Part shown: piece after piece, positions 24,496-45,120 of the stretch
Layout of the letters: each line of letters opens with the position of its first letter
Numbering within the stretch: the stretch's first letter is position 1
Assembly (NCBI GenBank): GCA_964187785.1
Contig: OZ076409.1
Span: forward strand, 50,594,001-50,658,000
Direction: 5' to 3'
Length of the DNA stretch: 64,000 nt
Source of the DNA: Amphiscolops sp. MND2022
Lineage: Eukaryota
Translations under genes and position numbers: made by a program
The notes under the pieces: model-generated
Seen by the model: only the letters and a program-made list of their open reading frames with translations
Database searches by the model: none
Told to the model about the DNA's origin: nothing

Positions 24496-26167
24496 TGTAA
24501 ATGGTGGAAAAGAGCTTTTAGAGTATTGACCAACTGACACCTCACACTGCTTCACGAGGATGGGGCAACATGCGCTTTTATAATAGTTAAAACATACAAA
24601 TGAAGAAAATAAACACATTCTCTCGAACAGAAAAGGATTTGAACTTGTTTTCAAAACTGCTGTCTGTTGATACAAATATTTTTCGCCAGAACTGAATAGC
24701 TTTCAAGAAGAAAACTAATGAAACAATTTTCTAGCCGTTGCAAAAAGGCTTTCATTTTCGACCAGTGAAGTTCTCTCGGCAACAAGAAAATGAAATATGA
24801 GTTGTAAAAAAAGTACTTTCGGTCGAAATTCAAGGGAGAATTTCGCCCTCCAATCAATCGTAGTCTAAGTTATAACCCGTCTCAAATCACCCTAACAATG
24901 ACAGTATATTTATTAGTTATAACTAGTAAATATTCTGTCATTTTCAAGGCGATGTCGGACGACATTTGTATTGAAATTATTATGTGGAAAAAATCTTCAG
25001 AATGCTTGAAAGAAAACAGGTGGCAATTCTGTTCCACTAATGATCAAAATTGTCCGAGGAAAAGATTTATGGCTGAAATGATTCCTCGTTGGCGGTTCTC
25101 ATTGCTAGGTATATTGCAAAAAACACAAAACAGTCCATAAACCCGCCAAATGTCTATAAAGAACATAGCGACAACTGAAATTTATGATAAACAGAAGTGA
25201 GAGAAAAAATCAAAGTTACATAACTGCTCAAAATTAAAAATTGATAACGAATATCGTTGGTACTGAATAACCGTCAGCGAAAGCAATTAGTCGTGCAGCT
25301 GGGTAAAGACTCTTTTTCTGGTGTCAGAAATTGAATGCAGTGTTAGTTTCTAGATAGCATTAATCAATTATGACATAATTCAGTTCAAAAAAGTTCTGGT
25401 TCCTTCATAACGGAGCAAAACACCGTAGATAAACGCCTAACTGAAAAAAATAGGTGATACTCCTTGCAATCCATGCATACCACAATTAAGTTTGTTCGCA
25501 TGCAGTATATGATACGGTATGAGATTGGATTCGACCAACTGCTTTCAACATGGAAAAGCGTGGCAACGCATGCGAACAAATGCATGAAAAGAAATAAAAT
25601 ATCAGTCGAATTGACTATGATGATGCAGAGAGCAAAACAGCCCTTTTCTTAAGAGAGTTACAAACTTTGTACCCGAGGGTTCTTTGTTGCCTGATACTAC
25701 TGAATTTCTGACAATATTAATCATTGTCGGATTGTGGGTTAGAATACCGCTCAAAATTAACTTTTTTAGTGAACAAATGTCATCCCAGCATGATGGAAAT
25801 ATAATCTACTAAATACCTGTAATGTAAATATTATGTCTTATGTACTTAGATATGGGCAATATGGAGTCATATAATAAGAGCCATGGTTGTGAGCAACCCT
25901 ACGTTACTTGTACCTTAATCCCTTCCCCCCTTGAGTGTGAGTTATATATATTTACTTAATACTGAGCGCTCTAGTTCCGGTGTCCGCATAACTGATCTTG
26001 CCTTAAATGGCCTTAAATGTGCTATATTTCATGAATATTGGTTAGTCACGACAAGGGAGAGAAGTGTTCCGGTCAAGCTGGACCGAGAGATGTAGAAACG
26101 ATGAAAGCTGTAACTTCTACTAGCTCCCCGCCTCAGAGTTTGTAGTTGTGACAAATTCCACTAAATT

Positions 26168-27052
26168 CATCACAAATTCATCGTCGAATTTGGTGACGAT
26201 GCTGACCTGATTTGAAATTTCAGTTGGATCCATCGGCGGATTTAACGGTGCTTTTAACCAAAGTTCATCGCAATCCCATCCTCAAAAATTGCGAGTGAAC
26301 AAAGCATGTGACTGTATACTCAGATTTCATCATAAATCCATCAGCGGATTTAATGGGATTTATTTTAGTAAAACTCATCTTTAATTCATCGCGATATCTC
26401 ATTTAGAAACTCCTGAATGTGCTTCTCATTTCTAAAGAACAGTAACTCATCCTTTATTCATCGTATTCACTAGTATAGAAGGGAAATGAGAAAGTACATC
26501 CTTAATCCATCCTAAAAAAGAGTGAAAGTGCTGGTTATCTGATTTGCTTAGTAAACCCATCCTTAATTCATCTTGATTTCGTTCGTGCTGAAAATTAACC
26601 ATTTTAGTGGATGAGTTCATCCTAAACTCATCGCTAAATTGAATTGCCTTAGTATTTGGTGTTTTAACTGGTGAGTTCATCCTAAACTCATCGCCAATTT
26701 GTATTGCTTTGGTATTTGCTGTTTTAACTGACAAGTTCATCTTAAACCCATCGCCAAAAATTCACTTGTGCTAGAATTAGCGTTTATCGACTGAATTCAT
26801 CCCGAATTCATCGTCATTTTAATCTGTGCTGGAAATTGGCAAATTATACGTGGAGTTCATCCTTTTATCATCGTCAGTTTAATTTGTGTTGATTTTCGAG
26901 CGAGAAAGACCACCATTCATCGCATTTTCATCCAGAGCTAAACTAGACTTGAAAATCAGCAAATATTCTTACGAGTTCATCGCATTTCCATCTTCAATTT
27001 TTAAATCATTGGTTTTGGCGCTAGAATCAGCGGAAAACATCGTTTTCCCATC
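26168..27052 (+). repeat. Array of 15 CATC-N7-CATC dyads in the 5' LTR (mirrored at ~43244-44130 in the 3' LTR)
   Basis: Dyads start at 26168, 26266, 26328, 26376, 26448, 26497, 26558, 26618, 26678, 26738, 26798, 26858, 26918, 26978, 27038. Confidence 0.9.
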
Positions 27053-27119
27053 CCGAATTGTGCTTTACCTTAAAATGACTTGAAATTAGTGCGTTATTGA
27101 ATGATTTGAGCTCATTTTA

Positions 27120-27362
27120 GTTGCTATAGAAACCATGATGCTACGTGCAGGCAATTGCGACATTGTAAATTGATGACTAAACACCATTAACATTAGTAGA
27201 TGTACCATGATGCGTGGCCACTTTGCGGCAGTTCACAACACCGGTCACGTGACTTACCATTTTAACACCAGCTGGTAACAGCCAATGAGAGAAGGTTGGT
27301 AAGAGATTTAGCGTTTCACCAACCGAAAAGACACGTGAACTGCTGTAATTTGGACCGCCATT
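27120..27362 (+). promoter_or_regulatory. Putative LTR promoter motif cluster
   Basis: GTTGCTATAGAAAC (RFX X-box-like, 27120-27133), palindromic GTCACGTGAC E-box (~27244), CCAAT (~27282), CACGTG (~27332), CCGCCAT (~27355). All retained in the 3' LTR. Confidence 0.45.
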
Positions 27363-27711
27363 AGCGATTACTGAGACCGAATTGCGACAAGCTACCATCC
27401 AGTTGGATAGTTCACGCCGAAAATCTACTTGAAAACATATCTCTATTTCATCTTCAGAAACTATAGAACTGAAACTGAGTAATTTCCTTGGTGCATCTAC
27501 GACTGCGATGAAAATTGGATGAACTTTCCTAACTACCTTGCTAATTTCCTTCTTCTCACCTAACGACTTACTTACTTGTACGACTTCATCTCAAACATCT
27601 CAGTTCAGATCAGTGAATTTGAGATCGAATAGCCATTTAAATAAAAAAAATACATCGAAACAGCATCTCAGATAATCCAGTCTTCACTCATAATTCTTTT
27701 CTCTCGGCTAC

Positions 27712-29217
27712 ATGAACCCAGATCAAGGTACCGAACTTAGAAGCGGTAGAGTCATAAATTCTTCGTCAGAAACATCTTCTCCAACAGATCCAGACATGGC
27801 TCCGGCGTCCGCCAATGACTCTGACAGCAACGAAACTTCAGATATCTCGTCCCAGTTGTCTGAAAGAAGAGAGAACTATGAAAGGAAGATAAATGAGTTA
27901 CAAAGCAAGTTTAGCCAACTGAAGAACTTATTAATGGCAGTTATTAGTAAAACCAATGAAAAAAACCGGCCATCGACATCGCAAAGTTCTTCAAAGCCGG
28001 TCCACACAGTGGGGCTCGACATGGTGACAGGAGCTATAGAAACCCGCTCCACCCGCCCGCCACCCAGCTTCACAAACTTCAGGAGATACCAAGAAGACGA
28101 CCCGGACGAAGAAGGCGAATCAACTCCTAGAAGCAATGAGGAACGACTACTCAATGCAATCGAGACGATCCCCCAACGGATCAAAAGCACCACCACCAAC
28201 ACGAAACTACTACAGACACACGTCCCAAATTTCAGAGGCCAAAAAGACAAATTCGTGGAATTTGAGCACCTTCTCCTCAACCACCTTAGCCCGCTCGCCA
28301 ACAAAATCACTGAGGAGAACAAACTCCACTTCTTTCAAAGCCTTTTGAGAGATGATGCAATAGAGTACTGGCAATCCATCCAGATAACGCCACTAACAAC
28401 GCTGAAAGATGTGCTCGACCTCTTCAGGAAAGAATTCGCGAAAGAGGATCTTAAAGAAGTGGCTCGCTACAAGTGGGATCAAGCCCGTTACGATCCCACA
28501 ACAGAGACATTCAGCGACTTCCTCAAAAACTTGAAAAAGACTGCGAAACAAGCCTTTGGGGATGAAGCGGATAAAATCATCAAAATGTTCTTGTTCGGCA
28601 AACTCCCAGTCGAAATACAACAAGAACTTACGATGGCCAATAAGGAGGAGAGCTCACCGGAAGAAATCAAGACATACTTGATGAGAAAGTACCAATACCA
28701 ACAGTATGCAGCGCCGCCCACGACAATTCAACCATTCAACGCAGTCACCTCCTCGGCCCCAACGACCAACACAACTACTAAACCAGCAACAACGACGACA
28801 ACGCAACCGACAGAACGAAAACAATTTGAGGGGCAATGTTTCTACTGCGGAAAGACAGGACACCGCAAAACGGATTGTCGCGCCCGACAACGAGACGAAG
28901 CAAACGGCATAAAGAAAGAGGACGCAATCCCAATGAAGAAAGTAGCTGACCCCGACAAACCAAAATACAATCCAAAGTTGGTCTGTCAGATTTGCGGTTA
29001 CACAGGCCACTCCGCAACGGATTGCAGACGACGCGTCCCCAAGGAAAGCAGCTCTGCATATGGAAAGATTCCATACACAACAAATTCACAGGACGACAAC
29101 AAGGCTAGACGACAAGATTTAAAACGACAGCAACAGCCGATGAATCCAATGCAAGCAATTACTGAAGACGACGAACAAATAAGCTACTCTGATGAAGACA
29201 TAAATCAGGGTTTTTGA
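27712..29217 (+). CDS. gag: Gag of element C (501 aa), starting inside the LTR
   Basis: Intact ORF with capsid-like VPNFRGQKDKFVEFEHL...KLHFFQSLLRDDAIEYW and two knuckles, CFYCGKTGHRKTDC and CQICGYTGHSATDC. Confidence 0.93.
   Translation: MNPDQGTELRSGRVINSSSETSSPTDPDMAPASANDSDSNETSDISSQLSERRENYERKINELQSKFSQLKNLLMAVISKTNEKNRPSTSQSSSKPVHTVGLDMVTGAIETRSTRPPPSFTNFRRYQEDDPDEEGESTPRSNEERLLNAIETIPQRIKSTTTNTKLLQTHVPNFRGQKDKFVEFEHLLLNHLSPLANKITEENKLHFFQSLLRDDAIEYWQSIQITPLTTLKDVLDLFRKEFAKEDLKEVARYKWDQARYDPTTETFSDFLKNLKKTAKQAFGDEADKIIKMFLFGKLPVEIQQELTMANKEESSPEEIKTYLMRKYQYQQYAAPPTTIQPFNAVTSSAPTTNTTTKPATTTTTQPTERKQFEGQCFYCGKTGHRKTDCRARQRDEANGIKKEDAIPMKKVADPDKPKYNPKLVCQICGYTGHSATDCRRRVPKESSSAYGKIPYTTNSQDDNKARRQDLKRQQQPMNPMQAITEDDEQISYSDEDINQGF
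28022..28033 (+). promoter_or_regulatory. Primer-binding site of element C (tRNA-Leu-like), inside the gag ORF
   Basis: TGGTGACAGGAG directly after the LTR-terminal CA; one mismatch from the tRNA-Leu PBS TGGTGTCAGGAG. LTR-LTR identity stops exactly here. Confidence 0.7.
29208..29214 (+). promoter_or_regulatory. Putative -1 ribosomal frameshift heptamer G_GGT_TTT
   Basis: XXXYYYZ heptamer immediately before the gag TGA; the pol ORF at 29214 is in the -1 frame. Confidence 0.7.
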
Positions 29218-32200
29218 TTCAGCCACGCTTTCTGCCCGCTACGAATGACACGCGCGACAAACGACTTAAGACTCAACAAACAACTCACAACCGTCCAATG
29301 AAGAAATGGCAGCCTTCAGCGTACAAACGACCAAAAGCTGATGACGTCTATCAGCGAAGACTTTCCAACGATGAAAAAGCGATGGGAAATGCACGTCAAC
29401 GCAACGGCAGCCGCTTTTCTCCACTCGCTGAAATCAACGATGAACAAACGATGAACTGGCAACAAAACACCATGAGGCAGGTGGACGATGCCAAAGAGAT
29501 GGACACCAACCATCTAGACGACGACTCGACTTCACACACAACAATCGACAAACGGCTTAGTATTAAAAAACATGCAAAACAAAGTAGTATTAACATTTCA
29601 AAAGCTAACAAACATGCAACTAAAACAGAAATTCACGTTCTTAGTCCCACTTTACATTTAAACAAGAAAGATAAAATGCTGTACGTTCCTCTTCAGTTTG
29701 ATAAATACGAAATCAACGCACTGTTAGACACAGGCGCAATTCAAAGCGCAATGTCTGAAGCAGAATTGCGAAAAAAAACAACGGCTCATCCAGAAGCCAT
29801 CCTTGAAGAACTCCCCCTTCCGAATTTCAAAATTCAAATAGCAAACGGGAACTTAGTCCCAGTGCGTAAGCAAGTCTTACTTAGATTTTACGTTGCTGGA
29901 AAAGTCTTTGAAGAAAAGTTCCTAATCCTTCCAACAAGGGGCACAATTTTAATTGGAATGTCATTCTTTGAAAAGTACTCAGTCAACTTGGACATAAAAA
30001 ATCACCTTGTCCACTTCCCCAATCACTTGATGTCCATGCAAGTTAGACAACAAAAGAACAACAGATTCAAAACTGGTTTAATTGATTTGTGTTCCAGTAC
30101 TAGAACAGTGATCCCTCCTCTCCATCAAGTGATGATACAGGTCCACAGTGACGCGGACATCTCACTTACAACTGGTAGAGTTGAGGGCTCACCTTGGATT
30201 CATGCGAAAGACGTCTGCTTGTTTCCCCAGCTTTGGTTGACCTAGATGAGGGCAAGACGACAATCCAGGTCACCAACCCGAACAACCACACGTTCACACT
30301 TGATGCCAACACCACTCTGGCACACTTTCGCATACCGACACCACATCAGGCGGCAAACATCACACCCATGCCAGTCGAACACTTGAACTTGATCACCAAG
30401 TACCCAGATGAGGCGGAAGCGGTGATCAACCAACTGTTCGTGAACCCTGACATGAAGTCAACTAAGTGGTACCCAACTCCCGAGACGTGCAGTGAGCCAG
30501 ACAAACTCACTGCAATTGAGCGACGAATCTATGATGAGATTCTGGCACTGCGAGAGCTCGAGAAGCTTGACCCGTCCCAATCCGATGAACAACGGATGAA
30601 CTTCCTGAAGAACTTCAACTGGGACGACTCGCTTCTTACTCCGTCTCAACGGTTACAGGTAGAGGAGTTGCTGGTAAAGTACAACTCCATTTTTGCTAGA
30701 CATCGTTTTGATATTGGCATGAACACTGATTTTAAAGTTAAGTTAACACCCCAACATGAAGAACCTGTTTATTCACAAAGTCTCCCTGCTCCGACAAATT
30801 TGAAGGACGATTTGCTCGTGGAGTTAGCCTTAATGCAAGAGTACGGGATTATAACTACCTTGCCTCATAGCAAATACTCATCTCCGATATTTGCTCAACG
30901 TAAACCTAATGGTAAATTGAGGATTTTAGTTGACTTGAGAAGAATAAACCACTTGATCAAAAACGATTACGGTGAACACAACCATCCCGTAACCACAATT
31001 GCTGACGCTGCCCAACACATGGCCGGGAAAAAGTACTTCTGTAAACTTGATTGTTCCCAGGCCTACCATTGCATTCCAATGGCCGATGAGCAGTCTGTCC
31101 AACTGTTATCGTTTAATTTTGGTTCTAGAACGTTTGCCTTTTTACGTCTAGCACAGGGTCTCGTAATCGTTCTTTGTCAGCATTTACAAGTGTAGTCCGT
31201 GAGAATTTGGACCCCTTGGTCAAAGCAGACCGGTGTGCTCAATATGTTGATGACATTGGAATTGCAGCACACACCCCTGACGAACTGATTCATATCCTTG
31301 AACTTGTTTTTCAGCAATTGAACAAAGCAGGTCTTAAACTTAGCATGAGTGAATGTGAATTCGGACAAAAGCAAATTGAGTACTTGGGCAAAACCATTTC
31401 TAGCACCGGTATTGCTCCCATTGAAAAACGAATAACTGATTTTCTGACCAAGTTGAAACCCCCCAATTCAGTGAAAGCGTTGCAACGTTATCTTGGTTTT
31501 GTAAACTTTTACAGGTCTTATATTCCCCGCCTAGCTGATAAAACTTGTTGTGTACAGTAATTGATCAAGAAGGACGTCCCTTTCAAGCTGAGCCAACAAC
31601 ATAAAGATGCCATTTTTGAAATCAATGAAAGTTTGTTAAAAGCAACAAAAGTGTCTCTGAAATTACCATTACTTGATAAACAATTGGTAATCATGTGTGA
31701 CGCCAGCGAACACGCTGCTGGCTATGTTTTGTTAATTGAGGATTATGCTGACCCGTCAGTCAAACAAACATACGCCCCCGTTGCATTTGGCTCTAAGAAA
31801 TTTCAGGGCGGCCAGATGTCTCTAACAATGTATGCCAAAGAGTTTTTAGCTATGCACTTTGCCTTCGATGAATTTGGCCACATTTTGTGGGGTGCGAAAA
31901 AACCCATCATTGTTATGACTGACAATAAGGCCTTGACTAGATTTTTTTCAGGCGAAGCATATCCCGCCTTCACTTTGGAATTTTTGCGATCAAACCCTTC
32001 AGTTCAATTTTTTATTAGCACATGTACCAGGAGTTGAAAATCCCGCAGCGGATTACTTATCTCGTCTTGAGATTAGACCTGAAGACCGTGTACACTTAAA
32101 ATTGACTGATACTATTCCAATTCACAGAATCGAGATCGACATCGCCTCCCGAACACCAAAACAGGAGGAAGACGAGCCTGATTACTTTCCCAAGAGCGAA

Positions 32201-34307
32201 CCACTCAAATGCAAGCGGCAGAAGGTTGTCAAAGAGATGAACTGGCACCTGGCACTGACGTGGCTCATGACGATGGGAAAGGGATGAAGTTCACCAACTG
32301 TGAGAGAACAGCGGCCTCAGATGACTTCGCGACTGACAACCAACTGACGTACCGCCTCACAGACGTGGACAAGCCGATTCAACTCTCGCAATTAATCCGT
32401 AAAGTATCATTATCACACCCGGTAATGAGTTAGGTTAGCCCCGCTGAGGGGATCGATCTAATTCAGGTCCAGAAAACTAACTGGGTTAATCAAAAAATGA
32501 TTAGATTTTTAGAAGGTACTGAAATTTTGCAACACCCAGTTAGTATGCAAGATCAGTTTTTTCAAAAGTTGCACAAAAATCGAAAACGCCTACAAGTTGT
32601 AAACGGTGTCTTGTACAGACAGTTTTTTGATCACACGGGATTGGAGTCTCACAAGCAGTTAGTTGTTCCTGAAGACTGTATTTTGAAAATAATTAGGACT
32701 CTACATAACAGCCCGGTACAAGGCCACCCTGGTTTAAAAAAATGTTGTACGAACTTCGTAAAAGATATTACTCTCCTAACTTAGCCTGTAAAGTTCAAAA
32801 AGTCCTTGACGGATGTGAAAACTGCATGAAATCTAAAAGTGTAAAAGAAACGCAACTACGTCCACCGTTACAAAAAATCTACGACCCGTGCGACGGACCA
32901 GAAAAACTGTTGGAAATAGACATCGTTGGTCCACTCCCGGCGTCGAACGGTTTTACACACATTCTGACGGCTGTTGACGTTTTTTCACGCTACCTGTTCG
33001 CCGTTCCGCTGAAGAGACCTGAAACACATTCCGTAGTCAGAAGATTACTGTCGATCTTCACGAAACACGCGTATGTGCCCAAGCACATTCTGACGGACAA
33101 GGGCACGGCGTTTACGGCTGAACTTCTGTCTGAAATCGCGAAAGCGGCTGATATTCACATCTCCCATGCCACGGTAAAGCACGCACAGACAATAGGCATG
33201 GTGGAGAGAACGCACGCGAAACTGAAAAAGATCCTTAAAATTAGTGTAAACGCAGACAGACCACAATGGGACCGCTATGTCGACATAGCAATCATGGCCC
33301 ATAACACAACGTATCATGATTCACTGAAATGTTCACCAACTGAAATTTTCCACGGCAGAACACCATACAACCCACTAGATCTGCAATTCCGAAACGCAAA
33401 CAAGCCGGCTGAAACAAAGTGCAAGGACGTGAACGAAATTCTAGACAAAATGAACTTAATCTTCAGAGACAATCTAGATAACATCATTTCCGCCTATCAC
33501 AAGTACAAAATGTACTATGATAGAAAATCACGAGCACAACCACTGAAGGTGAATGAATTTGTGTACCTACTAGATCCTAAGTACGACTCTCAGAGAAGCA
33601 AAGAAGAGTTTAAAACTTTCCATTGGAAAGGACCGTACAAGGTGATAAAAGTGCTATCCGATAGCAACTACATCATCCGCAAAGTAGGCACACACCAAAC
33701 TCAGTGCGTACATCGCATGCGACTGAGATTGTTTAAACCGGAGTTTCCGATTGATGACATCAACGTGTCTAAGCATCTTTACCCAGACACTGAAAGGGTT
33801 GAAGACACGGACATATTCGATTCGAATATTCCAACAACCGACGACGCTGATCAGAATGAGAACGAACACCTAGATCAAGACTTAGTCGAAGATGAGCCTT
33901 CAGACGAAATAGTTCCACCAGGACAAGAGCGAAACCATCCACCAGAAATTTCACCAGAAATAACCACTAGAATCGACAATCAGCAAGTAGAAACTGACCA
34001 CAATGACTTTAGACCACCTACAGTTAGATTTGGAACAGAAGACGAAATTATTCTACCGCCCCCCCGCGATGAAAGTAGAATAAGATTACCTCTGAGAGAC
34101 GAACAACACGAAAATCAGCCTCAACAGACAAACACACAAACTGAGGATGAGGAAAGGATGAGTTCTAGACCTTCTAGAAACAATCAAAGTAGGTACAGGT
34201 TACGCGAAAACCCTACACCGAAAACATACCCTGACTTCCTTATTCATGAGATTACATCAGCCAGAAACTCTCTGAGAAAGACCAACAAAGTAGACGTAAC
34301 GATTTAG
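29214..34307 (+). pseudogene. pol: Pol of element C (protease, RT, RNase H, integrase), broken by several frameshifts and stops
   Basis: ALLDTGA protease; KLDCSQAYH and YVDD (31243-31254) RT; MCDASEHAAG RNase H; HHCC-type zinc-binding region, EIDIVGP, TDKGTAF, GMVERTH, WKGPY integrase. Breaks near 30195, 31165, 31558, 31945, 32210, 32431, 32740. Confidence 0.93.
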
Positions 34308-34335
34308 CCACGAAAAACCACATTTCTAAACACAC

Positions 34336-34870
34336 GATGTGTTACGGATGAAAATTCACAAAAACGAGTCAATTACATGCAATTTCAACTTAAAACGAAC
34401 ATGAAGATGTAAAATAGATGAACAATCACTTAAAATTACATGAAATACGCAAAAAAACGAAACACGATGTAAAACGGATGAAAAACGACCAAAAAACCAG
34501 AAAAAACAACACATAAAAATTTTGAGATGAAAAAAGGATGAAATCACATGAAAATTTATCTCAGACACACGAGAGATGAAAAAGTGATAAACTTAGTCAA
34601 AAATTCGACCAATCAACATGCAATATTTACTAGCGATGCATTTGAGATGGAAAATGCCATCAGAATGCGAACGCACTCACGTTCATGCTATCATAATACT
34701 CTAGCTCGGCTAGAGGATGAAATAGCGATGAACTCGATTCAATTATTCAGAACTTACATGAAAACAATTAACGAGATGAATTTGTGATGGAAACTACCAT
34801 CAAATCGTGACCGAATTTATCGTTAGCCTGACACGATACTCTAGCTTCGCTGGAGGATGTCAAAACGACG
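34336..34870 (-). repeat. Internal cluster 1 of the dyad (GATG-N7-GATG on plus)
   Basis: Exact copies at 34336, 34406, 34466, 34526, 34635, 34716, 34775; one-mismatch copies at 34575 and 34856. Confidence 0.85.
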
Positions 34871-35145
34871 AATTTAGTCTAATTGGAAATTCGAAAATAT
34901 TAAATGACTTACGAAAACCTCCTTGTGATGGGAAACACCATCCACATAACATCACAATAAATCAGCTAATTCTCAAACAACATGTAACTCCACGAAACGA
35001 TAAAAAACCGCCGACTTTATTTCGAATCACGCAAAAATGAAATGATCAATACATGTAAGGTTCAAAGACCTGCCAAATCAATGACGTCACGAAAGAAATT
35101 GACAACTCCAAACTACATGCAATACAAATGAGCAATACACGGAAA

Positions 35146-35414
35146 TATACATGTACCGTTTAAAAAATGAACGAGATAATAGATGCAATTCACACCAAAA
35201 CAATACAAACCTAGACGAATAAAAATGAAACAAACAATCGAAAATACATGAAGCCTACTAATTTAGTTGCACGGTTTAAAAAATATAATAGTACATATAC
35301 ATGTATTGTTTAAAAAATGAACGAGATAATAGATGCAATTCACACCAAAACAATACAAACCTAGACGAATAAAAATGAAACAAACAATCGAAAATACATG
35401 AAGCCTACTAATTT
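35146..35414 (+). repeat. Tandem duplication, ~120 bp with ~150-bp period
   Basis: TATACATGTA...TTTAAAAAATGAACGAGATAATAGATGC...GAAGCCTACTAATTTA occurs twice. Confidence 0.9.
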
Positions 35415-36244
35415 ACATGCAAAATATAAGAATTGACGAAACAACCACAAAACGAATAAAGGAGTGAGCCCCCCCGGTAAACATCAGTTCATAACAAGTA
35501 AAATACCCCTATCGAAAAGCCAAAAACATTCCTTCGTGCTGGCTGGCATTTCTCTGAAAAGAGTGCTTGTTAGTTGAGGCGGGGAGCTCACAACCATATT
35601 CGGATGAAGCTTGCTGCGTTGGTTATCCAGCGGCTAGTGGATTCTCAGTTAGTTTTGTAGGGGGCTTTGTGACGACAAAGCCCTGTCCAAGTCAAGGAAC
35701 AAAAAATTTTAATAGAACATGTCAATAATGGGGCAACCCATTCAAAGGAAAACATTAAGAAAACACGCGCACATGAAACCACACGATATCACAAAACTTA
35801 ATAATTCGAAACATGCAAAGCCGTAGATGTCAATCACCCTGATTGATCAGATTAAACGTCAAATGGACAAACCCATCTCGACGTTTGATGACAAACAACC
35901 AAGCGTAAAAAATAACATGAAGACTATATATAGCTCAAAACTGAGAGATTTCATTCATCTGATAGGAGCGGAGCAGCTCCACTCACCCAGCTCTGAATTG
36001 GTACCCCATGTACCTTGCACAACGCAACGAAAATGATTAAGACACATGTACACTAAAATTCATGCAATCTCGACAACCCGACAAACGATCAACACCATAT
36101 AACACTAAAATACATGAAGAAAACACTCCGAAAACACCGCAAAATTGATAAAATACCCTCATCCACCATGAAAAACGCAATTCCCGATTAAGTTATAGCA
36201 AAATAAACACAAAAACACGCAAAATAAATATTTTCCAAAATTAC

Positions 36245-36628
36245 GATGAAAAAAAGATGAACTATGCAGCAAAATGAGCAAAAATTCGACAAGTCAAAAC
36301 TTTGAACTACAGCAAAAACAATGAACTACAGCAAATAACTCGCCAAAATGATAAAATGAAAACGCAAGATGAAAAAACGATGATCTATGTAGAAAAACCA
36401 CATAACAACACGCACTGATTCACATATAACGAACGATGTAAAAAAGATGAGAAAACAGTTTTCGCGACGTCGCTCGGCCGACTGAGGAAAACGTGATGAA
36501 AATGAGATGAAAAATCAAAACGAAGCACTGATTATCTAACTACACTTACACGAGATGTAATAACGATGAACAACATGACAAAAGTCTCCTACAAATTCTA
36601 TCAACTGAAAAGTGATGTGAAAGCGATG
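36245..36628 (-). repeat. Internal cluster 2 of the dyad
   Basis: GATG-N7-GATG at 36245, 36368, 36435, 36495, 36554, 36614. Confidence 0.85.
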
Positions 36629-39600
36629 ACCAATGAAAAACAGAGCCGCCGATTGACGCAACCTACCAAATGAACTTAACCAGTGTGAACCTAACTGAAC
36701 TCTACCTGCATTCCCACTCACTATTAACTCAAGAGAAAAACAATTTCGGGTGCCAAATGTTTAACTTGTACATAGTACACTGCCGATTTTTCCGACGCAG
36801 CGCATTTCTTCTTCTCCTCTCATGTCACTTAATGCGACATATAAAATTGGTCACCCATTTGCTAGATACAATACTATAACATACAGTAAAATAAAATAAC
36901 ATGAAAAATACAACAGTTTCAAATGAATGTGGACAAAGTACAGGCGTTAAACACCACTTTCTGGACTAGCAGCCCGCTCCCCGTTTATGCTGTACCCCAA
37001 GTTTGAATATAAGCGCAGTCTATAATCTTCGCCAGCCACAATCCCAATGTCGTCCCACAACATACTTTCGGTCAACTCGTTGAGATCGACTAAGCGCCGG
37101 TGTGACTCTGCAACTTCGTCTAGAAGAGGACCACTCACATTTTCATAGCTCCGAATACTGCTGGCAGAAAGATAGCTCACGATAATGGCACATACACCAC
37201 TCGTTACGTCGCTGCTTAAATGGCCGACTCCGTCACACAACAAAGTATTGTTACTCTGAATGCCTCCGTCCAAGCAAAATATACTTCGCAATAAATTCTG
37301 GGCACCTCGATTAGTACAATAGCACAGGGGGTCCAACACCGACAGATTCATCGCACTTCCGGTCGCCCCAGACCCACGTCGATAGCTACTGATGAATTCC
37401 AGGAAGCCACGTTCCATGTGTCCTTGCTCTGCATACGAGATTCGGCCTAACTCAACGAGAAGATCCGTAAATACCCGGATTTCGGCCAACAGAACATCTT
37501 CAGGAACAATATTGAGACTTGGCAGACTGAACACACTCCGAACAAAGGACAGATCATCCCGGACTCCTGGCAATGCGCTGACATTTTTCACTACAGTCAA
37601 AATGAAGACTGGCACTCGAGACATATCTTCATCATAAAGACATCCGCCCGCATCCACTTCGTTATTGGCACGAAAACTGTCAATCAGGACTTGCTGTTTA
37701 ACCTCGGAGATGGCATAACTCTCCACGTCCACGAACAACCAGGAACGCGTATCCTAGGCTGCTGGCAATCGGTCATCATCAACCAGAGTCGAAATCAGTT
37801 CTCTTATGAAACTGGCACTTTCCACCGCCCAGTAACAACTGCGTACTGAAGAAGCACCAAAACTCTTCTCGTAGGAATTCACCACTGAAACATTAAGGTA
37901 CAATAAATTCCACATGAAACTTGACTTGTATGACCACCCCCCCCTCACGCAAACGAAAATACCAACCTCACTAGAGCCCATCTAGAAGTGACCCGACAAG
38001 ACTTCACCAGGAATATAACAATTACTAACGAGCACGGTAAACTAGACTGAGCGCCTGAAGCCTGATTGGAATCCCAATCTCTGCACGCAAGGTCAGGTCA
38101 AGTGTGTCCAATGGTCCATCTCCACTGGCAAATCGCAACAGACACACAATGTCAGCCCAGTTACTCCTCAATTCCTCGCACACATCAGCGAGCGTCCACA
38201 CAAATACCTCACCAGTAAGAATCGCCTAAATTGTAAATAACATCATATTAATTAACTGCAACCACTGTGAAGTTCACTACAAATCGCCCCCTCAACACTC
38301 CGTTCACACATTTCTACACATAGATACCATCACATCATGAAATCATACGTACTTGCAGCAAATGCGGACACGCCAACAGCAAAGGATCCTTCACGAATCC
38401 TTTCAAGCGCTTCTGAAGATGGTTAAGAACCACATGGATATCAGTCCCACCAAGCACTTGACCAGCCACATCCACGATCGTCCGACTGACATCCGATAAC
38501 GTGAAGGATTTCACGTCCACGAGGCCAAGCCCAGCGGTGCTTCGGAACAGTCCACCCAGCTGTGGCAACGCATCACAGCACAGTCCAAGTGGAACAGGCT
38601 CTCCGAGCATGCAACACCACATGTTAACCAGCCAAGTGATCACTCGACCCTCCCAGTCACGAGCCAGATTGAAACAGAAGACAGTGTAGTGACTGACTCC
38701 GTCCATGCCACACACTGCGACCGTACCAGTCACTAGCCCTCCAGTCACTGTCAGATGGAAACTGCTGTACTCACTATTGCTCCAGATGGTAATCAGTCTC
38801 CGCATTACGTACGGCCACAAGCCAAGCAGAACAACGCTCTAAAATCAACATAAGGTCTTTCGAAACCATACATCATAATATTATACCGCCCCCCAACCCT
38901 CCGTTTCAATAGTAAACAATAGAAAATCCATACTCAGTCGAACGTAACAGAAAACGCAAAAATCAAATTTCCCACCATCACGTCGGACAACGCGCAAGTT
39001 GCCCCAAACAAGACCGCATGTTGGGGATCCGACGACACCAGCACTTCCCACAAATTAGCAACTCCACTAAAGTGACAATCGCGGTACAGAGCGTCGACCA
39101 CGAAGCACACAAATAAGCGCACAGTCTTTTCTGGCCAGTCTTCCCCCTCTTCGTCTTCCCCCCACACAGGCTGCCCAGCCCCCTCCAGTTCAAATACTTC
39201 CAAAACACTGAGTGACGGACAGGTCTCAATGAAGGGCACAGTCACCCCACCTAAGATTGCACGACACTCGGCGCTCTCTTCATTCGTCATGAGCGTTCCA
39301 TCGCGTCGCCGCAACGAAGCCCACGGTGTAAACGGATCACACAATCCTGACGGTGATGACGCAGTCCTCGGCAATGTTCCATAAAGGTGGTAATGCCTCG
39401 GCTGCCCACCTTAACGTCTCTCTTGCACATTAGGCATCGCACATACGACATGCGCGACTCGTGATTGCGTGCATATCCTAGCGCCAGCCCGCAGTATGGA
39501 TGATCAAACCATCCGGATTTGATCACCTTCTTTCCTGATAATCACAAAAAAAACAAAATGACATCATTACAAATCATCATACACAACGACTAAAATCATC

Positions 39601-39668
39601 TGTTACACATCCGCAAAATCGAAAAATGCAAAAGTAAAACGTAAACATCAAAAACGTTCACCCGGAGT

Positions 39669-40096
39669 GATGAAAACATGATGTAAAATAATATTTTCAT
39701 TGGAAATATAAGCGAAAACGAAGAAAAAACGAAAAGATGAAAAAGAGATGTGTTTGCAAGCCACCAGAACAGGAAATTGAAACTTTAAAAGACGAAAGCC
39801 TCGAAGGATGAAAAAGAGATGTATAGAACGACTTTGAACCAAAATTGAGATATTTTAGAGCGAAAATAACTTAACGATGAAAAAGAGATGTAAACCGAGT
39901 AAAACGACGATAATAGCTGAAAACGAACGAGAAAAATTCAAGGATGTAAAAGAGATGGAAAGTTCTAGAAAATGACCAGAAAAGTGAAAAGGAAGAAAAA
40001 CGCCATATTTAATACTTTTAACGATGAGAAAGTGATGGAAAATGAAAACTGCAGAAAACCATATAGTGAAAACAGAAAAACGATGGAAAATAGATG
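39669..40096 (-). repeat. Internal cluster 3 of the dyad, inside intron 4 of the cargo gene
   Basis: GATG-N7-GATG at 39669, 39736, 39807, 39876, 39943, 40023, 40082. Confidence 0.85.
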
Positions 40097-40612
40097 GACA
40101 AGAAGAAAAACGTTAAACCACGCTAGTGAAAGTGAAAACGAAAAGAGAAATGAACAAAAGTTACCGATCAGATACTTCACAGGGTTAAAGCTGTTTAGGT
40201 AACCTGGTAAACGAGACGCAATGGGCTCGTCGTCGGAGTCCACCAGACTGGGTCCCATTGGAGACGTCTCAGCAGTCGCAGGAACCAGACCGGGAACAGC
40301 ACCCTCCAGAGCAGGCTCAACGGACAGAGAATCACCAGCAGGGACATCCTCGACTGCCTCAAGAAGGGTCTCAGCGCTGTCAGTTGATGGCACGTCAGAC
40401 TGCTCAACGTCAGCCTCCACAACTTCAGGGACGCTAGCAGCTGGCGAAGAGGGAGCAGCCGAAAGAGTTTCCACAGGAGGATCGTAATCTGTGGAAGTCT
40501 CGCCAGTTTCCACAACGGCCTGAATGGACTGGTCAACAACAGCCACGCAGGCATCGACTGCCACATCCACAGGAGTGACGACGGCACTGACTCCTGCGTC
40601 TACAGTGACACG

Positions 40613-40652
40613 AGGAGGAGGAGGAGGAGGAGGAGGAGGAGGAGGAGGAGGA
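40613..40652. repeat. (GGA)n microsatellite encoding poly-Pro in cargo exon 4
   Basis: Direct GGA run; PPPPPPPPPPPPP in ORF 39965-40774. Confidence 0.9.
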
Positions 40653-42185
40653 CTTCGAATTGCTGACTCGTGGTCCAGGAATCGCTGGAAGTTCGGCGAA
40701 AGCACCGACACTGGGGCACGTGCCACTGGGGAGCTAACCGCGCCCAGGGACAAGTCCTGGAGGAACGAGGACATCTCTAGTGGGGGAGGCCCTCCTTGAG
40801 TGACAGAGTCAGCCTGCGGCGCACCAAAGTCACTCGTTTTATACCCACAGAGTAAGTGATAGGGAGAGGCCTTGGGGCGTGGATGGGAGTCCGGCCTGAA
40901 AGAAGAAAACAGAAATCAGACGACGACGAATGATGAAGAAAGTGCGCGTACACCGCGCGAAGAAAGAAAACAGGAAAAAAAGTCATCAAAAATTCATCCT
41001 CAAAAATGGAATTCGCAGCGGATCAGCCACGAAGGACTGTGAATGTCCATGACACATCCCAAATTCATCTTAAAAAATGAATTTTATAGGTAATCGACCG
41101 CGAAGGGCACTACATGCAGATGAGATGTTTATATCGGAATTACATCGGAGTGTCCGGACGATGCCTTAGTACAGACGGAAAGTGAAAAGGAGTCAACTCA
41201 CTATACTGCTGGATGCTATCTCGTAGCATGTCCCGCATGTGGCGATCATACCACCCGAAGGTGATGCTACCGAGGGAAGCATACCAAGGATAGTGATCTA
41301 AACATCAAACGGAAAGAGTCAACATCTGAAGGGACCGGAGATGAGAAATGAAGAGATTGTAGACTGAATTGAAGATCTGGAAGGACAGAACTTACACTGC
41401 GAAAGGTACGGGACGTTAGGAGACTGACCAAGCGGTTGATCAGGTTGAAACTGGGGTACGGGAGCTGCTGCTTGAACTTCAGGAGTCTCTTGAGGCGGCA
41501 CGGTCTGCAAGGTAGTCAGCTCAGAAATGACGCCGACAGAGTGAACTGAGTCCGCTAAAACCAAGACGCGTCTTCAGTACCTAATTGTTTCCTGACCCGT
41601 TTGTGAAAAAAAAGAAAAATAGTGCACTTACTTTCTGTAGCTTCAGTCTCTGGAAGAGAATAAACAGAGTGGATGTCGGACATCGCTGTAGGTTTGCAAA
41701 ACAATCTGAAAAGGAACGGAAGAGAGTGAAGAAAGGAACGAAATCGAAGAATCTGAGGACAAGAATTTGATCAGTAATTAAATGGCCTGATCAACCACGA
41801 TTGCGAGATACAAATTCACGGAAAATTTCAAAGAGCGCGAATGCGGTTTGAGTGCCAGGACAAACCAAGTACTTGAAATTCAGAAGATGAAAAATCGATG
41901 AAAACTCTCCGATTTCAATGACTGCCTACACTTTTCTTCACAGTTCAACCAACTTGACAATTTTCTCTGAAAATGAATCGCCCCCCAGAATTTGACTACA
42001 AAAGCTTCAAGTATTTGGTTTTGATGACAGCTGCCAGTCTCAGATCAATACCGACGAAGTTGAGCGGAAACGCGCAAAGGAAATCGTGGCGATTTTCAAA
42101 CCGACTTGACGGAAGATGATTCAAGGATGAGAATGTTTGTTGACAACCAGTTGGATTTCCTTCAGTTCAGAAAATTCAGTTTCAC

Positions 42186-42430
42186 CCAATCAGAATAAAG
42201 CAAGTGGTTGCTATGGCGACGATTTCATCTCTTTCTCATCGCCGAGAAATTCAGACAGCGGAAGCGACAGCTACGGTTGCTATGACAACAATTCATCTCT
42301 TTCCTATCGCGGAAATTGACAGAGCGGCGGCGCCAGCAGTCTGTTAATTCAACATCGATGTCTCGCTGAGTAAACAATTCATCGTTCATTCATCTCAAGA
42401 AAACTTCGGCAGACAAGAAATGGCGCCGAT
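42186..42430 (-). promoter_or_regulatory. Putative promoter region of the antisense cargo gene
   Basis: Two X-box-like palindromes, GTTGCTATGGCGAC (42207-42220) and GTTGCTATGACAAC (42276-42289); CCAAT at 42186; AAATGGCG near 42418. Lies 0.5-0.7 kb upstream of the predicted ATG. Confidence 0.4.
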
Positions 42431-42857
42431 TCATCGCCAAATTGTCAATGAAGCTACCAGAATGTTTACTTAGCCTAGGCGGCCTGGGGAAATCTTTTCA
42501 CCAGGAAATCGAGATTTTCACCGAAAACAATCGACAGACCGAGCTCCCATCAAAAGCATGACAACCAATAAAATGCAGATCTGCGGACATTCGATGGGCC
42601 AAGAATTAGAGTTGCCGCGTCGAAATTCTTTAACCGAAATCACCCAGGATGAAGCCAGACATGACGAGTGCCGAAAGTCCTCTTCTCAGAGAAGGTTTAC
42701 ACAGGGCAGAACAAACGAAGGAAATGCCAATTCAGAACAAACGAAGAATCAATTTTCTCCCTAACCAAACGAAGGAAACAGTCGAAGCCAACGCCGAGAC
42801 AACCATCATCTGCACATTTGGCCCCTGCACTCTCAGTCCAAATCCCGCCTCGGGGAG

Positions 42858-45088
42858 TGTCATGCCAGCATGATGGAAATATAATCTACTAAATACCTGT
42901 AATGTAAATATTATGTCTTATGTACTTAGATATGGGCAATATGGAGTCATATAATAAGAGCCATGGTTGTGAGCAACCCTACGTTACTTGTACCTTAATC
43001 CCTTCCCCCCTTGAGTGTGAGTTATATATATTTACTTAATTTTGAGCGCTCTAGTTCCGGTGTTCGTATAACTGATCTTGCCAATGGCCTTAAATGTGCT
43101 ATATTTCATGAATATTGGTTAGTCACGACAAGGGAGAGAAGTGTTCCGGTCAAGCTGGACCGAGAGATGTAGAAACGATGAAAGCTGTAACTTCTACTAG
43201 CTCCCCGCCTCAGAGTTTATAGTTGTGACAAATTCCACTAAATTCATCACAAATTCATTGTCGAATTTGGTGACGATGCTGACCTGATTTGAAATTTCAC
43301 TTGGATCCATCGGCGGATTTAACGGTGCTTTTAACCAAAGTTCATCGCAATCCCATCCTCAAAAATTGCGAGTGAACAAAGCATGTGACTGTATACTCAG
43401 ATTTCATCATAAATCCATCAGCGGATGTTATGGGATTTATTTTAGTAAAACTCATCTTTAATTCATCGCGATATCTCATTTAGAAACTCCTGAATGTGCT
43501 TCTCATTTCTAAAGAACAGTAACTCATCCTTAATTCATCGTATTCACTAGCATAGAAGGGATATGAGAAAGTACATCCTTAATCCATCCTAAAAAAGAGT
43601 GAAAGTGCTCGTTATCTGATTTGCTTAGTAAACCCATCCTTAATTCATCTTGATTTCGTTCGTGCTGAAAATTAACCATTTTAGTGGATGAGTTCATCCT
43701 AAACTCATCGCTAAATTGAATTGCCTTAGTATTTGGTCTTTTGACTGGTGAGTTCATCCTAAACTCATCGCCAATTTGTATTGCTTTGGTATTTGCTGTT
43801 TTAACTGACAAGTTCATCTTAAACCCATCGCCAAAAATTCACTTGTGCTAGAATTAGCGTTTATCGACTGAATTCATCCCGAATTCATCGTCATTTTAAT
43901 CTGTGCTGGAAATTGGCAAATTATACGTGGAGTTCATCCTTTTATCATCGTCAATTTAATTTGTGTTGATTTTCGAGCGAGAAAGACCACCATTCATCGC
44001 ATTTTCATCCAGAGCTAAACTAGAGTTGAAAATCAGCAAATATTCTTACAAGTTCAACGCATTTCCATCTTCAATTTTTAAATCATTGGTTTTGGCGCTA
44101 GAATCAGCGGAAAACATCGTTTTCCCATCCCGAATTGTGCTTTACCTTAAATTGACTTGAAATTAGTGCGTTATTGAACGATTTGAGCTCATTTTTTAGT
44201 TGCTATAGAAACCATGATGCTACGTGCAGGCAATTGCGACATTGTAAATTGATGACTAAACACCATTTACATATGTAGATGTACCATGATACGTGGCCAC
44301 TTTGCGGCAGTTCACAACACCGGTCACGTGACTTACCATTTTAACACCAGCTGGTAACAGCCAATGAGAGAAGGTTGGTAAGAGATTTAGCGTCTCACCA
44401 ACCGGAAAGACACGTGAACTGCTGTAATTCGGACCGCCATTAGCGATTACTGAGACCGAATTGCGACAAGCTACCATCCAGCTGAAAATCTACTTGAAAA
44501 CATATCTCTATTTCATCTTCAGAAACTATAGATCTGAAACTGAGTAATTTCCTTGATGCATCTACGACCGCGATGAAAAATGGAGGAACTTTCCTAACTA
44601 CCTTGCTAATTTCCTTCTTCTCACCTAACGACTTACTTACTTGTACGACTTCATCTCTAAAACATCTCAGTTCAGATCAGTGAATTTGAGATCGAATAGC
44701 CATTTAAATCAGTAAAATACATCGAAACAGCATCTCAGATAATCCAGTCTTCACTCATAATTCTTTTCTCTCGGCTACATGAACCCAGATCAAGGTACCG
44801 AACTTAGAAGCGGTAGAGTCATAAATTCTTCGTCAGAAACATCTTCTCCAACAGATCCAGACATGGCTCAGGCGTCCGCCAATGACTCTGACAGCAACGA
44901 AACTTCAGATATCTCGTCCCAGTTGTCTGAAATAAGAGAGAACTATGAAAGGAAGATAAATGAGTTACAAAGCGAGTTTAGCCAACTGAAGAACTTATTA
45001 ATGGCAGTTATTAGTAAAACCGATGAAAATAACCGGCCATCGACATCGCAAAGTTCTCCAAAGCCGGCCCACACAGTGGGGCTCGACA
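42858..45088 (+). repeat. 3' LTR of element C (2231 bp)
   Basis: Near-identical to 25778-28021; preceded by a short purine run GGGGAG (candidate PPT). Confidence 0.95.
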
Positions 45089-45120
45089 ACAATACTACAA
45101 ATTTAACGTATTTTACATAA
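44779..45120 (+). CDS. LTR-encoded copy of the Gag N-terminus (103 aa) plus 10 flank-derived codons
   Basis: Almost identical to the start of ORF 27712-29217 up to HTVGLD; diverges at the LTR end. Confidence 0.6.
   Translation: MNPDQGTELRSGRVINSSSETSSPTDPDMAQASANDSDSNETSDISSQLSEIRENYERKINELQSEFSQLKNLLMAVISKTDENNRPSTSQSSPKPAHTVGLDNNTTNLTYFT

Follow-up and report, generated by a model that had tools for sequence, protein, structure and literature searches.

Since the preliminary description of this locus placed an intron-containing gene antisense inside an LTR retrotransposon, the question arises whether such a gene belongs to the element at all and, if so, what it could do for it. How LTR retrotransposons counter host silencing, and which roles their antisense accessory ORFs have, are open questions in the literature available to us (PMC7264820; PMC11963269). 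From our point of view, with a probability of about one half, a Ty3/gypsy family carries here a seven-intron antisense gene whose product, likely a dead hAT-type transposase with a BED-like finger, is predicted to bind the paired motifs of its own element and probably keeps the element transcribed.

The host element

The window (the whole stretch of 64,000 nucleotides that was analysed) contains a Ty3/gypsy element of 19.3 kb that, judged from its sequence, hosts on its opposite strand a gene with eight exons separated by seven GT-AG introns. The features of Ty3/gypsy membership are all present, namely TG...CA LTRs, a primer-binding site, a short target-site duplication (TSD) and gag followed by PR-RT-RH-IN. 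The 5' LTR (25778..28021, plus strand; TG...CA, 2.24 kb), in which CATC-N7-CATC sites are phased, is 97.1% identical to the 3' LTR (42858..45088, plus strand). On the same strand follow the primer-binding site TGGTGACAGGAG (28022..28033), gag (27712..29217) with zinc knuckles and its first ATG within the LTR, and pol (29196..34307), whose Pfam domain order is that of Ty3/gypsy; pol is split over several frames in the window copy and forms a 1703-aa open frame in young paralogues. The spacer between pol and the stop of the antisense gene (34308..36946) holds paired CATC clusters with a pitch of about 60 bp.

The two copies of the duplication, ACAAA at 25773..25777 and ACAAT at 45089..45093 (both plus strand), differ by one base. 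Across the family, 5-bp TSDs flank whole elements and are exact in 37 of 42 copies; they are ordinary 5-bp integrase products with no sequence in common. With hundreds of copies and LTR pairs that reach 100% identity, the family is recently active and very successful.

Exon-intron structure of the antisense gene

All features of the gene lie on the minus strand. The coding part of exon 1 (41632..41683) starts with the ATG at 41683 and is followed by exon 2 (41396..41554, 159 nt) and exon 3 (41202..41297, 96 nt), the latter with a conserved W/F-rich motif that is present in the sister X families too. Exon 4 (40204..40895) encodes a Pro/Ser/acidic low-complexity region, and exon 5 (38976..39534), which measures 560 nt in most paralogues, precedes exon 6 (38353..38838, 486 nt), exon 7 (38030..38225, 196 nt) and the C-terminal exon 8 (36947..37884, 938 nt).

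The preliminary description had joined these exons through six introns and suspected a seventh. All six begin with GT and end with AG in the window, and paralogues back introns 1 (41555..41631), 2 (41298..41395), 3 (40896..41201, with two paired sites), 5 (38839..38975, phase 0) and 6 (38226..38352, phase 0). The donor proposed for intron 4, at 40164, is wrong: GT occurs there in 26 of 31 aligned copies and at 40203 in all 31, and in several lineages the 39 nt before 40164 are interrupted by in-frame stops or by indels of 1 nt. With the donor moved to 40203, intron 4 spans 39535..40203 and contains eight paired CATC sites. The suspected seventh intron near 37885-37962 exists with a longer span, 37885..38029 (GTTAGT...TTTCAG, phase 1; GT in 30 and AG in 31 of 31 copies), since a GT at 37962 is found in the window copy only (1/31). 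Given this correction, exons 7 and 8 are in frame, so that the small indel postulated for each exon other than 2, 3 and 6 is not needed there; exons 4 and 5 are indeed out of frame in the window copy, which is decayed and also has an internal stop in exon 8.

In the 31 aligned copies, the donor GT of introns 1 to 7 is kept in 30, 29, 31, 31, 31, 30 and 30 and the acceptor AG in 31, 30, 30, 31, 30, 31 and 31. Of the 91 donors in thirteen more divergent copies 90 are retained, as are all 91 acceptors, with introns that vary in sequence and length. Introns 5-7 have the same position and phase, between open exons, in one copy each of J, K, X and Y1, and intron positions and phases are retained down to about 25% protein identity. 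Upstream of the ATG, at a distance of 22 nt, a conserved polypyrimidine tract with an AG (41706..41760, minus strand) is likely the acceptor of a 5'-UTR intron; neither a donor for this putative intron nor a poly(A) signal common to the copies was found when sought. The antisense promoter would likely be provided by the 3' LTR.

A fixed part of the element under selection

The antisense position inside an LTR retrotransposon recurs in every one of the 70 copies that were picked by means of the gene itself, which lie at the same place, antisense to gag-pol pieces; pol pieces are upstream on the opposite strand in 60/60 copies of the window family and 10/10 of the sister families X. When elements of families Y1-Y3 were instead picked by their integrase, an antisense homologue of exon 6 was detected in 10 of 10 (E 4e-8 to 5e-14) and of exon 5 in 9 of 10. 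A conserved antisense ORF between pol and 3' LTR, by which the aORF-3R class is defined, is thus found in 70/70 gene-picked and 10/10 integrase-picked elements.

The tests on paralogues that the preliminary description had proposed point to selection on the protein. The dN/dS values are purifying (median 0.11-0.26 per exon group, 15 copies), and a natural open frame of 1046-1063 aa is found in 10 of the 44 copies modelled. By a rough count in 54 copies, exons 5, 6 and 8 carry 0.149 lesions per 100 codons vs 0.144 for pol. One could argue from the window copy, broken in three places, that the locus represents a recent nested hAT insertion or a neutral passenger with chance splice signals. This is extremely improbable, as the gene is present in 80 of 80 elements whose families have integrases of about 60% identity, dN/dS is far below 1, and splice sites and phases are kept while the introns diverge. 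Moreover, a comparison of 34300-36900 with 41700-42860 yielded no exact 11-nt inverted pair and no candidate with an 8-bp direct repeat, which argues against an independent hAT insertion with terminal inverted repeats (TIRs). The fixed antisense place, the 5-bp TSDs around whole elements, the lack of TIRs with an 8-bp TSD and the purifying selection together tie the gene to the element, as had been supposed.

Introns that are antisense to the genomic RNA survive reverse transcription. The earlier proposal that the orientation explains the persistence of the introns draws on this established principle and fits the finding that no modelled copy shows a precise intron loss. Among the scored exon-6 matches there was no intronless (processed) copy, the longest open frames being 260, 219, 248 and 284 aa in four sets of about 150 each. 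Since the gene reads backwards, it can pass through reverse transcription indefinitely with its seven introns.

Nature of the encoded protein

Exon 5 encodes a BED-like zinc finger (39356..39436, minus strand; CxxC...H...H, helix GITTFMEH), a pattern that is retained in every family. Pfam zf-BED matched 3 of 9 rows (best E 0.0016), and the finger of the window scored 14.7 bits vs a curated cut-off of 20.6. Against 862 frames of hAT/BED loci, the top matches of the exon-5 profile were BED-finger regions (best E 0.002).

For exon 6, the structure model consists of a helix, three strands and a helix, and its weak Foldseek matches are mostly what we take to be RNase-H-like folds. It aligned to Hermes residues 154-247 with Z 5.0, the top value among the DDE enzymes listed, and in a wide structure search Hermes ranked 15 (Z 4.4), both structure models being of low confidence (pLDDT 52). 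The ESM Atlas pointed to MULE/IS256-type DDE clusters, below its threshold of 0.9. If the numbering of the Hermes aspartates that we assumed for placing the catalytic positions is right, conserved acidic residues are lacking at both positions that a weak structural alignment assigns to its first two aspartates; strand 1 has no conserved acid, and the D of 'CCD' is replaced by E, S, R or T in other types. A CxxH motif is likewise absent from its expected place, a position that depends on this alignment and numbering as well. Since the conserved catalytic acids are missing from the predicted RNase-H-like core, the protein probably represents a hAT-type transposase that has lost catalysis, an assignment for which the homology is weakly supported.

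Exon 8 is mostly helical; its fold search returned common helical arrangements with no clear match, nor did the Atlas yield a lead that could be used. By eye, exon 8 of the Y families may resemble the hAT dimerisation domain in some motifs. Pfam gave no hAT match for exons 6-8 and none to the dimerisation domain PF05699 (hhalign E 0.26), and hhalign scores against hAT frames of the same genome did not exceed those of shuffles. PF14291 gave no match, and its control likewise matched nothing. In the search for a source transposon in the same genome, the profiles of exons 5, 6 and 8 matched 0 of 25 PF05699 loci, and after 30 zf-BED loci were added, the finger alone matched.

Among the exons scanned, Pfam found no VANC domain (DUF1985) and no TnpA domain, and no exon scanned matched TRP28 or the PMD domain. 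Sequence searches of the PDB were empty or gave chance matches, and matches to IcmR, LTP_2 and LeuA were at chance level. In the protein databases, the 268-aa open frame of exon 8 in the window matched none of the longer proteins. The exon-5 profile retrieved six Y-type gene calls only, of which the three inspected read through intron sequence, and the exon-6 profile 42 exon-sized relatives with no named or full-length protein among them. As no Pfam match exceeded the curated cut-off and no spliced product appeared in the database searches, annotation pipelines would miss this gene.

Motif arrays, finger helices and exon modules

The motif arrays on which the preliminary description had built part of its argument exist far above chance. 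The 7.1 kb of non-coding element contain 44 CATC-N7-CATC pairs, as against a mean of 2.1 and a maximum of 7 in 500 re-placements; CATC pairs at other spacings (2 to 16) number 0-1 each, and the 44.7 kb of flank hold one. In total, 70 of the 71 pairs in the window lie within the element, where they are dense in the LTRs and occur also in introns 3 and 4, in the spacer and inside gag-pol. Across LTR lineages, the cores of the pairs are 95-97% conserved vs 63-88% for adjacent bases.

The motif changes with the finger helix, so that a table of motif by family is diagonal. Families with the helix I(T/S)T(F/Y)(M/L/F)EH have 32-48 CATC pairs per element downstream of pol, those with LSSLW(E/D)H have 0-1 CATC pairs and 15-23 ATGTRG-N12-CR dyads, and the family with LQNLWGH has 15-16 AC-N10-AGTCGT dyads. 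This correspondence comprises three independent types only; related families have inherited finger and motif together. The patterns of the Y motifs were derived from the very copies in which they were counted, and the array is weaker in one Y2 copy; in an unbiased dyad scan, the motif of each family came out at or near the top. As far as the letters can tell, the protein is predicted to bind the paired motifs in the LTRs, spacer and introns of its own element.

Exons 5-8 form very old types that were reshuffled by recombination onto young, nearly uniform pol backbones, with intron 4 as one border of the exchanged module. At least nine types (37-90% identity) share one finger helix and one motif, which stay constant within the family at saturated dS.

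Relation to known systems

Like the plant Tat/Retand gypsy elements (Grande gene23, RIRE2, Retand TRP28/PF04195) and the fungal Boty, the element has, in nearly all copies, a conserved antisense coding region between pol and 3' LTR beside repeat arrays, for which a role as DNA-binding regulator has been proposed in those elements (PMC7264820; PMC11963269). It differs from the plant cases in its host, which is recognisable as an animal by its Wnt genes, and in its seven coding introns, BED-like finger and predicted RNase-H-like core. According to the account available to us, the plant antisense ORFs have no similarity to other transposable elements, and spliced antisense transcripts are still to be sought (PMC7264820). 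PMD genes in gypsy elements are a further parallel, as a chromatin-related accessory domain common to gypsy and DNA transposons (PMC5418596), but they concern another domain and plants only, and the parts of that report at hand do not describe motif arrays. Bdelloid ORF3s and planarian Burro show that gypsy-like elements of animals capture accessory genes (PMC5408684; PMC6431247); as far as those sources were accessible, these are env-like or enzymatic ORFs or polyprotein domains and not a multi-intron antisense transposase derivative. In the mostly open-access papers that our search covered, we found no LTR element of an animal for which a gene derived from a transposase, antisense and spliced, has been described.

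With VANC of the Arabidopsis VANDAL elements (Mutator) and TnpA of En/Spm, the element shares a gene for a putative factor together with short motifs, particular to each family, that have multiplied in its introns and other non-coding parts; VANC is described to bind such motifs, which in its case lie in introns and in tandem repeats that are non-coding (PMC5735166). Transposases are presented as sequence-specific regulators that lose catalysis upon co-option, and TnpA as a descendant of a transposase (bioRxiv 10.64898/2026.08.24.746577). In contrast to these plant DNA transposons, whose factors act by DNA demethylation, we deal with an LTR retrotransposon without a CpG methylation footprint and with a Pfam-unrelated protein, and self-regulation is predicted only. 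CpG transitions between LTR pairs are not enriched (0.0045 vs 0.0042 per site, counted with TpG sites in the denominator), CpG o/e is 0.92-1.04, and there would likely be no CpG methylation to remove. Without CpG decay in LTR pairs or flanks, a VANC-like demethylation step is unsupported.

SLEEPER and ZBED are hAT derivatives that were domesticated by the host. The present protein resembles hAT transposases such as Hermes and their domesticated derivatives in its putative N-terminal BED-like finger, predicted RNase-H-like strand order and long helical region, and in having short repeated DNA words as likely targets; the BED domain of Hermes binds 4-bp subterminal repeats cooperatively (PMC10368747). 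Unlike Hermes, it has no conserved catalytic acids, and TIRs and an 8-bp TSD are lacking; it is a retrotransposon, and not the host, that maintains the gene, and sequence homology is below detection. The gene likely descends from a DNA-transposon enzyme.

Proposed mechanism and alternatives

The best reading of these comparisons is a self-regulator of the VANC/TnpA kind. An ancestor of these LTR families would have acquired, in reverse orientation, a transposase gene with introns; these introns, not being spliced from the genomic RNA, would have been copied along. Transcribed from the side of the 3' LTR and then spliced, the gene would yield a protein that may bind two half-sites as a dimer or oligomer. 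Binding could activate the element or shield it from silencing in trans, as with VANC and TnpA, by a route other than CpG demethylation.

The same protein and binding sites could also serve to repress the element, as negative feedback on copy number or by silencing competing copies in trans. The binding evidence fits this equally, dense sites in LTRs and introns would suit a coating repressor just as well, and antisense transcription itself may silence via dsRNA (PMC7264820). We regard repression as unlikely, however, because the family is so successful and recently active and because selfish copies could easily lose a trans repressor, yet all families examined retain the gene. It appears similarly unlikely that host factors occupy the arrays and that the protein acts elsewhere, e.g. 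against hAT transposases of the host or one of its silencing proteins, as a decoy or in a dominant-negative way. hAT and BED sequences abound in the genome, and the divergence of exons 5-8 down to 37% identity, with finger helix and motif unchanged within a family, does suggest pressure on surfaces other than the DNA-reading one, so that the old types could reflect such a conflict; host factors, on the other hand, would not be expected to track the finger, whereas the three dyad motifs shift with the three finger helices. Unlikely to much the same degree, in our view, is an action on the cDNA, in which the protein would bind the arrays like subterminal repeats and pair the LTR ends or escort the pre-integration complex to the nucleus or its targets. 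Transposases of the hAT group oligomerise and attach to subterminal repeats by way of their BED domains (PMC10368747), nuclear-import roles have been proposed for plant antisense ORFs (PMC7264820), and the arrays are dense in the LTRs, but they also lie deep inside the element, far from its ends, and the TSDs are of the ordinary integrase type.

Sequence-specific self-regulators with co-evolving motifs have been described for plant DNA transposons. If the self-regulator reading is true, the family would be a rare case of a retrotransposon that carries its own sequence-specific regulator. Three finger-motif pairs in one animal retrotransposon clade make the question of self-regulation directly testable.

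One could speculate further, tentatively, that an animal LTR clade domesticated an intron-bearing transposase as an antisense, sequence-specific anti-silencing or activating factor, that finger and dyad co-evolve in each family as they do in plant VANC, and that, within a family, the exon 5-8 modules are ancient, interchangeable effectors which frequency-dependent selection maintains and template switching in the arrays exchanges, which would amount to an allele system inside a retrotransposon population. The self-regulator model itself leaves the coexistence of at least nine exon 5-8 types unexplained. One element family can, in any case, hold many ancient gene variants on a near-uniform pol backbone.

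Results

The antisense gene (36947-41683, minus strand) lies within a Ty3/gypsy LTR retrotransposon of 19.3 kb, the LTRs of which (25778-28021 and 42858-45088) are 97.1% identical to each other and have TG...CA ends. A primer-binding site (from 28022) is followed by gag and then by pol in the order PR-RT-RH-IN; the 5-bp target duplication has one mismatch. This copy of the element is old and decayed, and its pol is broken over several frames. In the host genome, which is that of an animal (1.07 Gb, Wnt genes present), exact 5-bp duplications flank whole elements in 37 of 42 cases, and LTR pairs of paralogues reach 99.9-100% identity, which indicates that several types of the gene have been mobile in recent time. 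The gag frame opens within the LTR (27712-28021, matching the end of the 3' LTR) and continues across the primer-binding site, so that about 100 gag codons are duplicated in both LTRs; in elements of the related family Y1, it likewise starts ahead of the LTR end.

The observation of an intron-containing antisense gene in an LTR retrotransposon is real, and most of its structure as first drawn up holds. Of the six introns in the preliminary description, each is bounded by GT and AG as proposed and five were confirmed by alignment with 30 paralogues, whereas the donor of intron 4 had been misplaced: GT is present at 40164 in 26 of 31 copies but at 40203 (minus strand) in all 31, and in several lineages indels or stops interrupt the 39 nt between the two positions. 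The suspected seventh intron near 37885-37962 does exist, but a donor at 37962 is unique to the window copy, and the alignment gives its extent as 38029-37885 (minus strand). The resulting eight exons have commonest sizes of 52, 159, 96, about 650-700, 560, 486, 196 and 938 nt.

Among 13 more distant copies, donors are kept in 90 of 91 instances and acceptors in all, while intron lengths and sequences drift, and introns 5-7 are conserved in position and phase in J, K, X and Y1, as seen in a single copy of each type. Precise intron loss was not found in the modelled copies, nor an intronless copy among the scored exon-6 matches. On this comparative evidence, the antisense gene would be spliced. 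The search for an intact reading frame in paralogues was successful, as 10 of 44 fully modelled copies can be read through to a stop in a single frame (1046-1063 aa), with GT and AG bounding all seven introns, and another three are short of just one splice site or stop; in the window copy, exons 4 and 5 are out of frame and a stop lies inside exon 8. A conserved pyrimidine tract and AG immediately 5' of the ATG suggests an additional intron in the 5' UTR, for which a donor was sought and not found. In one paralogous copy (L057-L058) the gene is naturally open, and the 10 kb fetched upstream hold an integrase piece and no gag-pol frame; this copy is possibly a deleted, non-autonomous one.

Searches with exon 6 returned 680-1235 first-look candidates each, 150 of which were scored each time. 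In all 60 copies fetched over the range of identities, pol pieces lie upstream on the opposite strand, a few of them deleted or rearranged. Terminal inverted repeats with an 8-bp duplication, named in the preliminary description as the mark of an independent hAT insertion, were looked for around the gene and not found, so that there is no sign of such an insertion; an active hAT element was rejected as the identity of the gene. In X, a sister group with an integrase identity of about 60-75%, 10 of 10 copies carry the gene. Reciprocally, ten elements of the families Y1-Y3, chosen by an integrase 64% identical to that of the window element, all have an antisense homologue of exon 6, and nine have one of exon 5. 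For some database relatives the host assembly holds no close counterpart (best 38% and about 30%), and the family therefore likely extends to other assemblies.

The dN/dS values, which had been proposed as a check, point to constraint: medians between lineages are 0.13 (exons 1-3), 0.26 (exon 4) and 0.11-0.22 (exons 5-8), with 0.07 for pol, in a set of 15 copies picked for near-open pol and restricted to unsaturated pairs, which are not independent of one another. By a rough count over 54 copies, exons 5, 6 and 8 carry 0.149 disabling lesions per 100 codons versus 0.144 for pol. In exons 5-8, 89 of the 96 pairs compared between lineages have reached saturation at synonymous sites, the median synonymous difference in pol being 14%. 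Copies that are 93-100% identical over pol drop to 51-69% over exons 5-8, and identity recovers in the motif array of intron 4. Pol, exon 4, and exons 6 and 8 yield conflicting trees, and a topology that keeps together three groups defined by their exon 5-8 cassette is rejected for RT as well as for IN in quick trees (p-AU 4e-7 to 0.002). The gene thus consists of reassorting modules (exons 1-3, exon 4, exons 5-8) that predate the pol backbone by far; their exchange would most simply come about by template switching in reverse transcription.

The two half-sites of the motif CATC-N7-CATC are separated by one turn of the helix. In the 7.1 kb of non-coding element the motif is found 44 times, versus once in 44.7 kb of flank, and no other spacing from 2 to 16 is seen more than once. 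The pairs recur at a pitch of about 60 bp in the LTRs, the spacer and introns 3 and 4, with 70 of the 71 in the window inside the element, and across diverged LTR lineages their cores are 95-97% conserved versus 63-88% for adjacent bases. The X families have this motif and a similar finger helix in common with the window family. The Y families have inverted dyads in its place, namely 15-23 ATGTRG-N12-CR sites with the finger helix LSSLW(E/D)H in Y1 and Y2, and 15-16 AC-N10-AGTCGT sites with LQNLWGH in Y3. The table of motif by finger is thus diagonal, although it comprises three independent types only, the Y patterns were read from the very copies in which they are counted, and relatives share both by descent. 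CATC-N7-CATC pairs are also present in gag-pol (28022-34307 in the window), with 6-9 in the window and X families and none in the Y families.

In the protein, about 320 low-complexity residues are followed by a finger of the pattern CxxC...H...H, which all families retain. Pfam zf-BED matches this finger weakly (best E 0.0016, 3 of 9 rows), and among hAT-type loci of the host genome an exon-5 profile picks out the BED-finger regions. Exon 6 is predicted at low confidence (pLDDT 52) to fold as a helix, three strands and a helix. Foldseek gave no match to this model at E < 0.001, its weak rows being mostly RNase-H-like folds; in structural alignments scored by Z, Hermes residues 154-247 rank fourth in one search (Z 5.0, rmsd 3.5, 81 residues) and fifteenth in another (Z 4.4), and the Atlas gives a lead, below threshold, to MULE and IS256 DDE clusters. 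Exon 8 is predicted to be helical, and a clear structural match for it was not found; in the Y families (e.g., L209:2197-3564, minus strand) it is extended by about 130 aa of a basic, Ser/Arg-rich tail with an acidic patch at its end, and this tail is absent from the window family. No conserved acidic residue is present at the sites expected for the first two catalytic aspartates, which were placed by the Hermes numbering, and the profile comparison with hAT frames of the host genome was not significant. From its architecture rather than from statistics, we consider it quite likely that the protein descends from a hAT-type transposase. It may also resemble a group of animal hAT transposases.

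Discussion

By its position, the gene is an antisense accessory gene. In the model we propose, an ancestral element would have acquired a transposase gene in reverse orientation. Since introns antisense to the genomic RNA escape splicing and so get copied along with the element, this orientation would have left those of the gene unspliced and transmissible. Catalysis would then have been lost and DNA binding retained while target sites multiplied within the element, and the protein would bind the dyads of its own family and favor transcription of the element. That it binds the motif arrays is a reasonably probable prediction, and the whole model of a dead transposase-derived self-regulator has, in our estimate, about an even chance (roughly 0.5).

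Neither CpG depletion nor CpG-biased decay is visible in elements or flanks (whole window, 44 LTR pairs), which suggests that repeats in this host are free of CpG methylation and makes DNA demethylation an unlikely route. The same protein may instead repress the element, act at the cDNA stage or represent a decoy. Our model also does not account for the number of ancient exon 5-8 types that the window family holds alongside a single finger helix and a single motif. A bold reading of this diversity is frequency-dependent escape from small RNAs or a host protein; a plain one is that pol sweeps through a recombining population.

Several known systems resemble the proposed self-regulator. The motifs bound by VANC are family-specific and lie in introns and tandem repeats (PMC5735166), similar to those that the element's own factor is predicted to bind here; TnpA and further regulators are, as in our model, derived from transposases (bioRxiv 10.64898/2026.08.24.746577), and Hermes BED domains cooperatively read 4-bp repeats (PMC10368747). 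On this reading the gene would work like VANC or TnpA, although its protein lies outside those protein families. Plant Tat/Retand and fungal Boty elements share the antisense position between pol and 3' LTR, with ORFs of unknown function (PMC7264820, PMC11963269). The antisense RNAs that Arabidopsis Copia elements produce from the 3' LTR have several exons and are non-coding (bioRxiv 10.1101/2024.04.02.587720), plant gypsy elements carry PMD and AlkB domains (PMC5418596, PMC9289625), and the extra ORFs of rotifer and planarian elements (PMC5408684, PMC6431247) differ in kind from the present gene. Among freely accessible main texts, and outside Repbase entries, literature searches brought up no account of the combination seen here.

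Other features of the window

A low-complexity open frame of 721 aa (3249-5414, minus strand) has no Pfam match, and its C-terminal part is presumably gag-like. Tandem repeats with a 2.36-kb period (about 47900-53700, 96-99% identical) are apparently a fragment of another retroelement. Repeats dispersed over the window in either orientation (15600-16400, 24000-24300, 45700-45900, 57000-57300 and 63100-63350) share a GGGGGACCCTTTGG-like core and likely represent a small non-autonomous element, and one paralogous LTR element is inserted into such a motif.
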